NCBI RefSeq assembly: GCF_003334765.1 | Contig: NZ_QOWT01000048.1 | From: Escherichia coli | Lineage (GTDB): Bacteria > Pseudomonadota > Gammaproteobacteria > Enterobacterales > Enterobacteriaceae | Direction: 5' to 3' (one strand) | Length of the DNA: 21,358 bases | In this document: piece after piece, positions 18,001 through 18,624 of the stretch | Position numbering within the stretch: the first letter of the stretch is position 1 | Layout: each line of letters opens with the position of its first letter | Position numbers: made by a program

Positions 18001-18624
18001 ATCCCGATCTCTCACCATAAGAGTGGCGGTGATTATTAACCATAAAATAAAACGCCTACATCTTGAAAATTCTGCCTCCCCCCCAAGATCAAAAAAGATA
18101 CAACACGATAAGGTGAAAGTATGTCCAGAGCAGAATTACTGCGTGATATTGAAGCAATTATTTCTGGGGCAGGCTTTGAGCTAAGTAACTCAGAAGCTCC
18201 GATGACGTTTAAAAAAAATGTCAGTTATCCTGGTCTGATCGCGGGAAAGAATGAAATAGCCCACTTCCTGTTGTTCACTAATACCGGTACCGTTCAAATA
18301 ACGGCTAAATGGCAGGAAGTGAGTGGTACCGCAATAGAGAAGCTAGGCCACACAGTTCTTGATGCACAACACACACAACATCAGAGTTATTTCGTTGTCT
18401 GTGGCGGAGGAAAGCTGGTAACAAGAGCCATTGATTACTTAAACGCCCATCGAACATTAGCTCCTCGTCTTAGAGCAATGCAAGTAAAAGAACTGGAATC
18501 AGCATTGGAAGAAATCATCTAAGGCCCTACGGGGCTTTTTATGTCTGAAATTTCGAGCACCTCTCCTCGAAAGGTGTCACGTATTGCGTAGAAAATATTA
18601 GTTAATTGTGTGAATATTGGCCTA

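Follow-up and report, generated by a model that had tools for sequence, protein, structure and literature searches.

Locus and regulatory signals

We analysed a 21,358-nucleotide stretch of an Escherichia coli contig (NCBI RefSeq assembly GCF_003334765.1, contig NZ_QOWT01000048.1), in the following referred to as the window, and focused on a 133-codon open reading frame (ORF) at 18121-18522 on the plus strand, which is carried by a derivative of the Tn3-family transposon ISEc63. The encoded protein of 133 amino acids (aa) has the fold of a restriction endonuclease and belongs to a clade of the PDDEXK_11 family in which the acidic residues of the active site are replaced and the methyltransferase gene found beside canonical family members is absent. 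The initial annotation had described a compact gene with its own ribosome-binding site and terminator, and ORF, Shine-Dalgarno sequence and terminator are indeed all present in this self-contained gene. Its features are as follows.

18121-18522, plus strand: 133-aa gene (RefSeq WP_000085189.1), PDDEXK_11 restriction-endonuclease-fold protein of the clade without the acidic residues
18110-18119, plus strand: Shine-Dalgarno region, with AAGGTG at 18110-18115, 5 nt before the ATG
18521-18541, plus strand: intrinsic terminator directly 3' of the stop codon, supported by a terminator scan and a conserved hairpin
18063-18102, plus strand: leader, with TTGAAA followed by CCCAAGATCAAAAAAGATACA at 18082-18102, which includes GATC

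The ORF opens with ATG, and GGTG or GGAG is kept at the Shine-Dalgarno position across homologues. According to the terminator scan, the hairpin comprises 18521-18538 and is followed by a T-run; it shows compensatory changes among homologues whose flanks are otherwise unrelated. The 21-nt leader block CCCAAGATCAAAAAAGATACA contains two AAGAT[CA] repeats 10 bp apart and one GATC, and differs by one substitution in one copy among seven enterobacterial copies, the flanks of which otherwise differ. It is missing upstream of the Vibrio, Alteromonas and Shewanella homologues and is therefore conserved among the enterobacterial copies only. A promoter scan upstream of the gene did not detect a consensus sigma-70 promoter. 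The block is possibly a promoter or an operator, while autoregulation via its GATC is a weak proposition because of this restricted conservation and the result of the promoter scan.

Over the 671 bp that surround the gene, the window is 100% identical to plasmid 55989p of enteroaggregative E. coli, for which RefSeq gives WP_000085189.1 the product name "PD-(D/E)XK nuclease superfamily protein". Full-length homologues are numerous, so the ORF is not due to chance. A minus-strand ORF of 50 aa within the gene (18305-18457) was taken as spurious, as purifying selection in the plus frame supports the plus-strand reading. An A8 run in the ORF was rejected as a conserved slippery tract, since other copies use AAG AAA for the same residues.

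Family membership and fold

The 133-aa protein matches Pfam PF20472 (PDDEXK_11) over nearly its whole length (model positions 11-138 of 145; E=2.1e-9, 37.7 bits), as do all 37 aligned relatives, and shares the K-x-Q...G[ST]..EK...GG signature of this family, which is distantly related to the DpnII family PF04556. The AlphaFold model (pLDDT 92) shows a restriction-endonuclease fold with the alpha-beta-beta-beta-alpha-beta core. The gene encodes a single-domain restriction-endonuclease-fold protein descended from the PDDEXK_11 family; the Pfam match, the RefSeq product name and the fold thus contradict its earlier designation as an orphan without a recognised family. An NCBIfam scan of the protein returned one chance match only (E=0.055, 13.6 bits against a cutoff of 40), a PHROGs scan gave nothing useful, and PDB sequence searches with the protein and with the family profile yielded chance matches only.

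A profile search recovered about 150 proteins of 150-165 aa from many phyla, which constitute the canonical PDDEXK_11 members. For all five canonical members examined, a Dam-type adenine methyltransferase gene abuts or overlaps the PDDEXK_11 gene at every locus retrieved (5 to 10 loci, according to whether near-duplicate contigs are counted separately). The partner is of the PF02086/TIGR00571 type in four of the five cases, with the three scanned PF02086 partners all scoring above the NCBIfam "Dam family" cutoff, and of the unrelated PF05869 "Dam" family in the fifth. In addition, 11 of the 37 family members gave weak Pfam DpnII matches. Because of these neighbours and matches, the canonical proteins are very probably small type II restriction enzymes, and their specificity is most likely GATC.

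Replacement of the acidic residues in the query clade

To describe what sets the clade of the 133-aa protein apart, columns were counted in an alignment of seven clade members with 30 canonical members. Acidic positions that are nearly invariant in the canonical proteins are replaced as listed below (clade residues in the numbering of the 133-aa protein).

Helix 1: E in 29 of 30 canonical members; L7 in the clade
Strand 2: E or D in 30 of 30 canonical members; H48 in the clade
Strand 3, first residue of E-x-K: E in 29 of 30 canonical members; T61 in the clade, varying between T, V, A, I and F
D of the DEK motif: D/E in 30 of 30 canonical members; I72 in the clade
D of the IDGGG motif: D/E in 28 of 30 canonical members; G95 in the clade

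The catalytic signature E (helix 1)...D/E (strand 2)...E-x-K (strand 3) therefore reads L7, H48 and T61-A62-K63 in the query, with the lysine alone being kept. Residues retained in the clade are K63, Q65, G69, T70, E73, K74 and G96. With 133-141 aa, the clade proteins are shorter than the canonical members, lack the canonical N-terminal QG..AN..G arm as well as the insertion after helix 1, and show only about 20-28% identity to them. Moreover, none of the 22 clade loci contains a Dam methyltransferase gene of the PF02086 or PF05869 type within 6 kb. This distinguishes the clade from Dam-linked, DpnII-like type II restriction-modification systems, in which the cognate methyltransferase lies beside the endonuclease.

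Purifying selection and decayed copies

Pairwise comparisons among enterobacterial copies gave dN values of 0.05-0.08, dS values of 0.3-2.0 and dN/dS ratios of 0.03-0.18, which indicates strong purifying selection on the 133-aa gene. Protein length is steady at 133-141 aa over 38-99% identity, and the Shine-Dalgarno sequence, the 21-nt leader block and the terminator are kept where the flanks are not. As judged from this pattern of conservation, the gene is functional despite the residue losses.

A decaying relic of a restriction enzyme without present function would account for the lost catalytic residues as well as for the frameshifted copies in E. albertii plasmids, which carry two 2-bp deletions, and the truncated copies in about 20 E. 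coli records. However, such a relic would hardly retain its length and signals as described, nor show these dN/dS ratios with synonymous sites near saturation, and on the latter ground we reject this explanation as extremely unlikely. The initial annotation would have been undermined by poor conservation of the ORF or by pseudogene features in homologues. Overall the gene is widely conserved, although decayed copies do exist.

Host range and genomic context

Clade members were found only in Enterobacterales, Vibrionales and Alteromonadales, orders that carry Dam, SeqA and MutH. The clade is narrow, with 25 representative clusters out of 1.84 billion reaching E ≤ 0.001. Among 100,044 species genomes, ten loci were detected, nine of which belong to Vibrionales or Alteromonadales, while the tenth encodes a canonical-type protein. 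Within complete E. coli genomes, the gene is present in 61 of 5426, and 57 of its 64 places are on plasmids. Homologues in phages were not found.

A Serratia plasmid copy with 88.6% DNA identity shares homology from the upstream hairpin (window position 16114) to the downstream terminator (18528), yet it lies outside any transposon and has no resolvase adjacent to it. Copies at 86-89% protein identity are located on a Kosakonia chromosome and on integrase-bearing islands of Enterobacter, which also carry DUF932, Antirestrict and RadC genes. Distant copies (45-67% identity) were detected in Vibrio, Photobacterium, Alteromonas, Pseudoalteromonas and Shewanella. The gene is a terminator-bounded mobile cassette on transposons, plasmids and chromosomal islands and in the cargo of a CRISPR-associated transposon.

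Defence genes are frequent among the neighbours and include DRT1a/b, PifA and, in three lineages, a WYL regulator with PDC-S38. The last arrangement was seen in Serratia, Alteromonas and Vibrio tasmaniensis, where the gene is preceded by a WYL-domain regulator of opposite orientation and by a protein of 56 aa, at the following positions.

Serratia, locus L003, 4117-5266: WYL regulator and small-protein pair
Alteromonas, locus L013, 4400-5724: WYL regulator and small-protein pair
Vibrio, locus L018, 4263-5618: WYL regulator and small-protein pair

The basic protein of 56-58 aa beside the regulator matches the PADLOC candidate PDC-S38 (E = 3e-32). We noted that this PDC-S38-like small protein is annotated in the wrong frame in some records. 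The Serratia copy is also near PifA. On a Photobacterium plasmid (L004, 992-5138), the gene adjoins a complete DRT1 system (Drt1a and Drt1b) and lies not far from TniQ-Csy2-Csy3-Cas6f, which belong to a type I-F CRISPR-associated transposon; it is apparently part of the cargo of this transposon.

The ISEc63 derivative in the window

Location inside a Tn3-like module had been proposed for the gene, with an orientation convergent to the resolvase. Both were confirmed: 36-nt inverted repeats of the gamma-delta type of the Tn3 family (16048-16083 and 19309-19344, 92% complementary) bound the module, and the resolvase gene is on the minus strand at 18622-19179. The components of the element are given below.

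16049-16114, plus strand: left inverted repeat (IRL) of ISEc63; the core 36 nt match the right repeat in the window, 66 nt match in the full element
16120-16144, plus strand: upstream terminator hairpin, left edge of the captured cassette according to terminator scan and Serratia homology
16145-18008, plus strand: group II intron (5' GTGTG ... GAT 3'; Rfam group-II-D1D4-3, 137 bits) between hairpin and leader
18622-19179, minus strand: tnpR serine resolvase of ISEc63, convergent with the 133-aa gene
19180-19308, strand not assigned: res region, with a hybrid site I (19271-19298) in which identity to ISEc63 ends at about 19285
19309-19344, minus strand: right inverted repeat, which stems not from ISEc63 but from an IS101-like mini element (about 205 bp)

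A complete ISEc63 in an IncN plasmid comprises 4473 bp with 66-nt terminal repeats and has the order IRL, terminator hairpin, ORF, tnpR (convergent), res, tnpA and right terminal repeat (IRR). Without the intron, the window sequence from IRL through res is 98.9% identical over 1390 bp to the copy in NZ_CP043186.1, in which tnpA is annotated as "Tn3-like element ISEc63 family transposase". The gene is located between the terminal inverted repeat and tnpR, collinear with the complete copy, and the earlier suggestion that it is a passenger of a Tn3-family element was therefore correct. ISEc63 is a relative of Tn1000 (gamma-delta). As a passenger, the gene is neither a resistance nor a virulence gene, and unlike the two-gene toxin-antitoxin modules of Tn3 elements it stands alone between terminators of its own, without a partner ORF.

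The element in the window is not an intact autonomous transposon: tnpA is absent, and a 5-bp target duplication was not found, the flanks being ACCAG and AGAAT. The element derives from ISEc63 by loss of tnpA and insertion of a group II intron. At the res site I junction at about 19285, the window reads TGTCTGATAATTTAT followed by GATATATCAGACA, whereas ISEc63 continues across the junction with AATATTTCGGACG. The last 60 bp with the right repeat correspond to the end of the mini Tn3-family element (about 205 bp; L036, 3355-3558), which has res-like sites, resembles IS101 and occurs in hundreds of plasmids. About 400 plasmids contain either the 60-bp end segment or the backbone that adjoins the repeat on the outside. 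The simplest reading of the junction suggests that resolvase-mediated recombination between two res sites deleted tnpA.

The group II intron, which contains a reverse-transcriptase ORF at 16560-17912, is inserted exactly after TTTTTTATG of the hairpin and on the same strand as the 133-aa gene. Its empty site is visible in the IncN copy (L002), and intron-less copies resume at 18009. An unrelated copy of the gene on a chromosomal island (L027) is likewise preceded by a group II intron, inserted at another site.

Further observations concern the surroundings of the element. The left inverted repeat interrupts the start of an IS-type orfA (15842-16048), so that the transposon derivative is nested among IS66-family and other insertion sequences. 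Rfam domains V/VI of a group II intron were matched at 9444-9515 on the plus strand (47 bits against a gathering score of 40), which suggests another intron or intron fragment at roughly 7.6-9.5 kb. At 729-853 on the minus strand, there is a strong Rfam match to the Hfq-binding small RNA STnc490 (140 bits).

Co-occurrence with the resolvase, which the initial annotation had suggested as a check, holds for ISEc63 copies and not elsewhere. ORF and tnpR are found together in 49 plasmids, exclusively as ISEc63 copies, whereas in at least 5000 plasmids a resolvase sequence about 84% identical was matched with no alignment to the ORF next to it, and at least 15 loci contain the ORF without an adjacent resolvase. 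These data bear on the idea that the protein assists the resolvase or transposase of ISEc63 as an accessory factor, for which its position next to tnpR in ISEc63 and the example of XisH could be cited. XisH, the fdxN-element excision-controlling factor (PDB 2okf), has the restriction-endonuclease fold and governs the excision that a serine recombinase carries out. In contrast to what an obligate partnership of this kind would require, the 133-aa gene has no consistent recombinase linkage outside ISEc63, and the protein is no more similar to XisH than to many nucleases. As the same terminator-bounded cassette is found without transposon or recombinase, an integral role in transposition or resolution is very unlikely.

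Function of the clade

The replacement of the acids together with the retention of the lysine and of the Q..G[ST]..EK block under purifying selection makes binding without cutting the most likely activity. We propose that the protein is a non-cleaving reader of DNA sites that derives from a Dam-linked restriction enzyme and is carried as autonomous cargo, an interpretation that we regard as about equally likely to be right or wrong. The ancestor would have been a small type II restriction enzyme of the PDDEXK_11 family working with a Dam-type adenine methyltransferase. In the clade, this partner is absent, and both metal-binding acids of the PD-(D/E)XK motif as well as three further conserved acids are replaced, so that cleavage was presumably lost. 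With the lysine and the Q..G[ST]..EK block in place, the protein may still bind DNA as its ancestors did and would then act by occupying sites. The ancestral site was probably GATC-like, with its methylation state mattering, and a specificity of this type may have been retained. As a self-contained cassette with leader, ORF and terminators, the gene is cargo of mobile elements in Dam-positive gamma-proteobacteria, often in defence regions, and it may play a role in conflicts between mobile element, host and invader. ISEc63 captured the cassette as a passenger that most likely takes no part in its transposition machinery.

A precedent for a restriction-fold module that keeps site recognition without cleavage is the C-terminal domain of Sau3AI, which is catalytically inactive, has a MutH-like restriction-endonuclease fold and still binds GATC. 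The likeness is one of description, and the Sau3AI domain is part of a larger active enzyme, whereas the 133-aa protein is encoded by a free-standing gene of mobile elements. It may also be speculated that the protein is a domesticated, dead GATC-type restriction enzyme with which mobile elements of Dam-positive bacteria read the methylation state of DNA. It would bind, but not cut, unmethylated or hemimethylated sites on DNA that is incoming or newly replicated, and thereby shield them from restriction or block competitor DNA; we consider this more specific proposal unlikely.

Several observations weigh against a non-cleaving DNA-site reader. The GATC specificity of the canonical enzymes is deduced only from their methyltransferase partners and, on the side of the clade, the leader block with GATC is kept only among enterobacterial copies. 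PADLOC defence models gave no match to the 133-aa protein, and searches for literature on PF20472 and PDDEXK_11, as on PDC-S38, retrieved no paper. The clade is furthermore less basic than most canonical members, with isoelectric points (pI) of 4.6-8.8 (6.1-6.9 for the enterobacterial copies) in comparison to mostly 8-9.5, which weakens the assumption of strong DNA binding. Finally, E73 is kept and H48, D9 and E66 are conserved within the clade, so that a rewired active site is conceivable.

This last point leads to the possibility that the protein still cuts DNA, using a non-canonical active site made up of residues such as H48, K63, E73, D9 or E66. It would then be a solitary, Dam-sensitive restriction enzyme, and since the orphan Dam of the host would protect the chromosome, a single gene could provide defence against unmethylated incoming DNA. 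The coincidence of the host range with Dam-positive orders, the frequent defence-island neighbours, the retained K63 and E73, the conservation of H48, D9 and E66 within the clade and the strong purifying selection are all compatible with such an enzyme. Still, the clade has neither of the canonical metal ligands and does without the conserved N-terminal arm, and the 133-aa protein gives no PADLOC match. In place of the ExK glutamate, different members carry T, V, A, I or F, and such variation between hydrophobic or small residues is unlike a catalytic residue that has been relocated. We therefore judge a solitary active enzyme, including the one-gene defence that it would offer, to be improbable.

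The pI values, near neutral or acidic and unlike those of the mostly basic canonical enzymes, slightly favour an inhibitor that binds protein instead of DNA. Type II restriction enzymes are typically dimers, and a dead subunit could pair with or block an active restriction enzyme and in this way act as an anti-restriction aid to the establishment of plasmids and islands. Its location on plasmids and on islands that also contain Antirestrict/KlcA-type genes would suit this role, as would the lack of copies among phages. An identity of about 20-28% to canonical members is, however, low for the formation of heterodimers, and we saw no canonical PDDEXK_11 enzyme in the hosts concerned. As the best-conserved parts of the protein are K63 and the DNA-facing Q..G[ST]..EK block, an inhibitor of this type appears quite improbable.

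Significance

The gene and its transposon are already in databases. In contrast, neither the link of canonical PDDEXK_11 proteins to Dam methyltransferases nor the loss of partner and acids in a clade under purifying selection appeared in the literature searched, and the limited part of the ISEc63 literature that was covered contained no study of the only cargo gene of this transposon. Among resistance and virulence plasmids, ISEc63 is a common transposon. A conserved protein that no longer cuts and spreads on its own would represent a simple example of the exaptation of a defence nuclease and would connect Dam methylation with mobile-element biology in a testable way. If the protein read methylation, this would constitute a non-nucleolytic mode of action for a descendant of a restriction enzyme, while an active solitary enzyme would amount to a one-gene restriction system that relies on the housekeeping Dam of its host.
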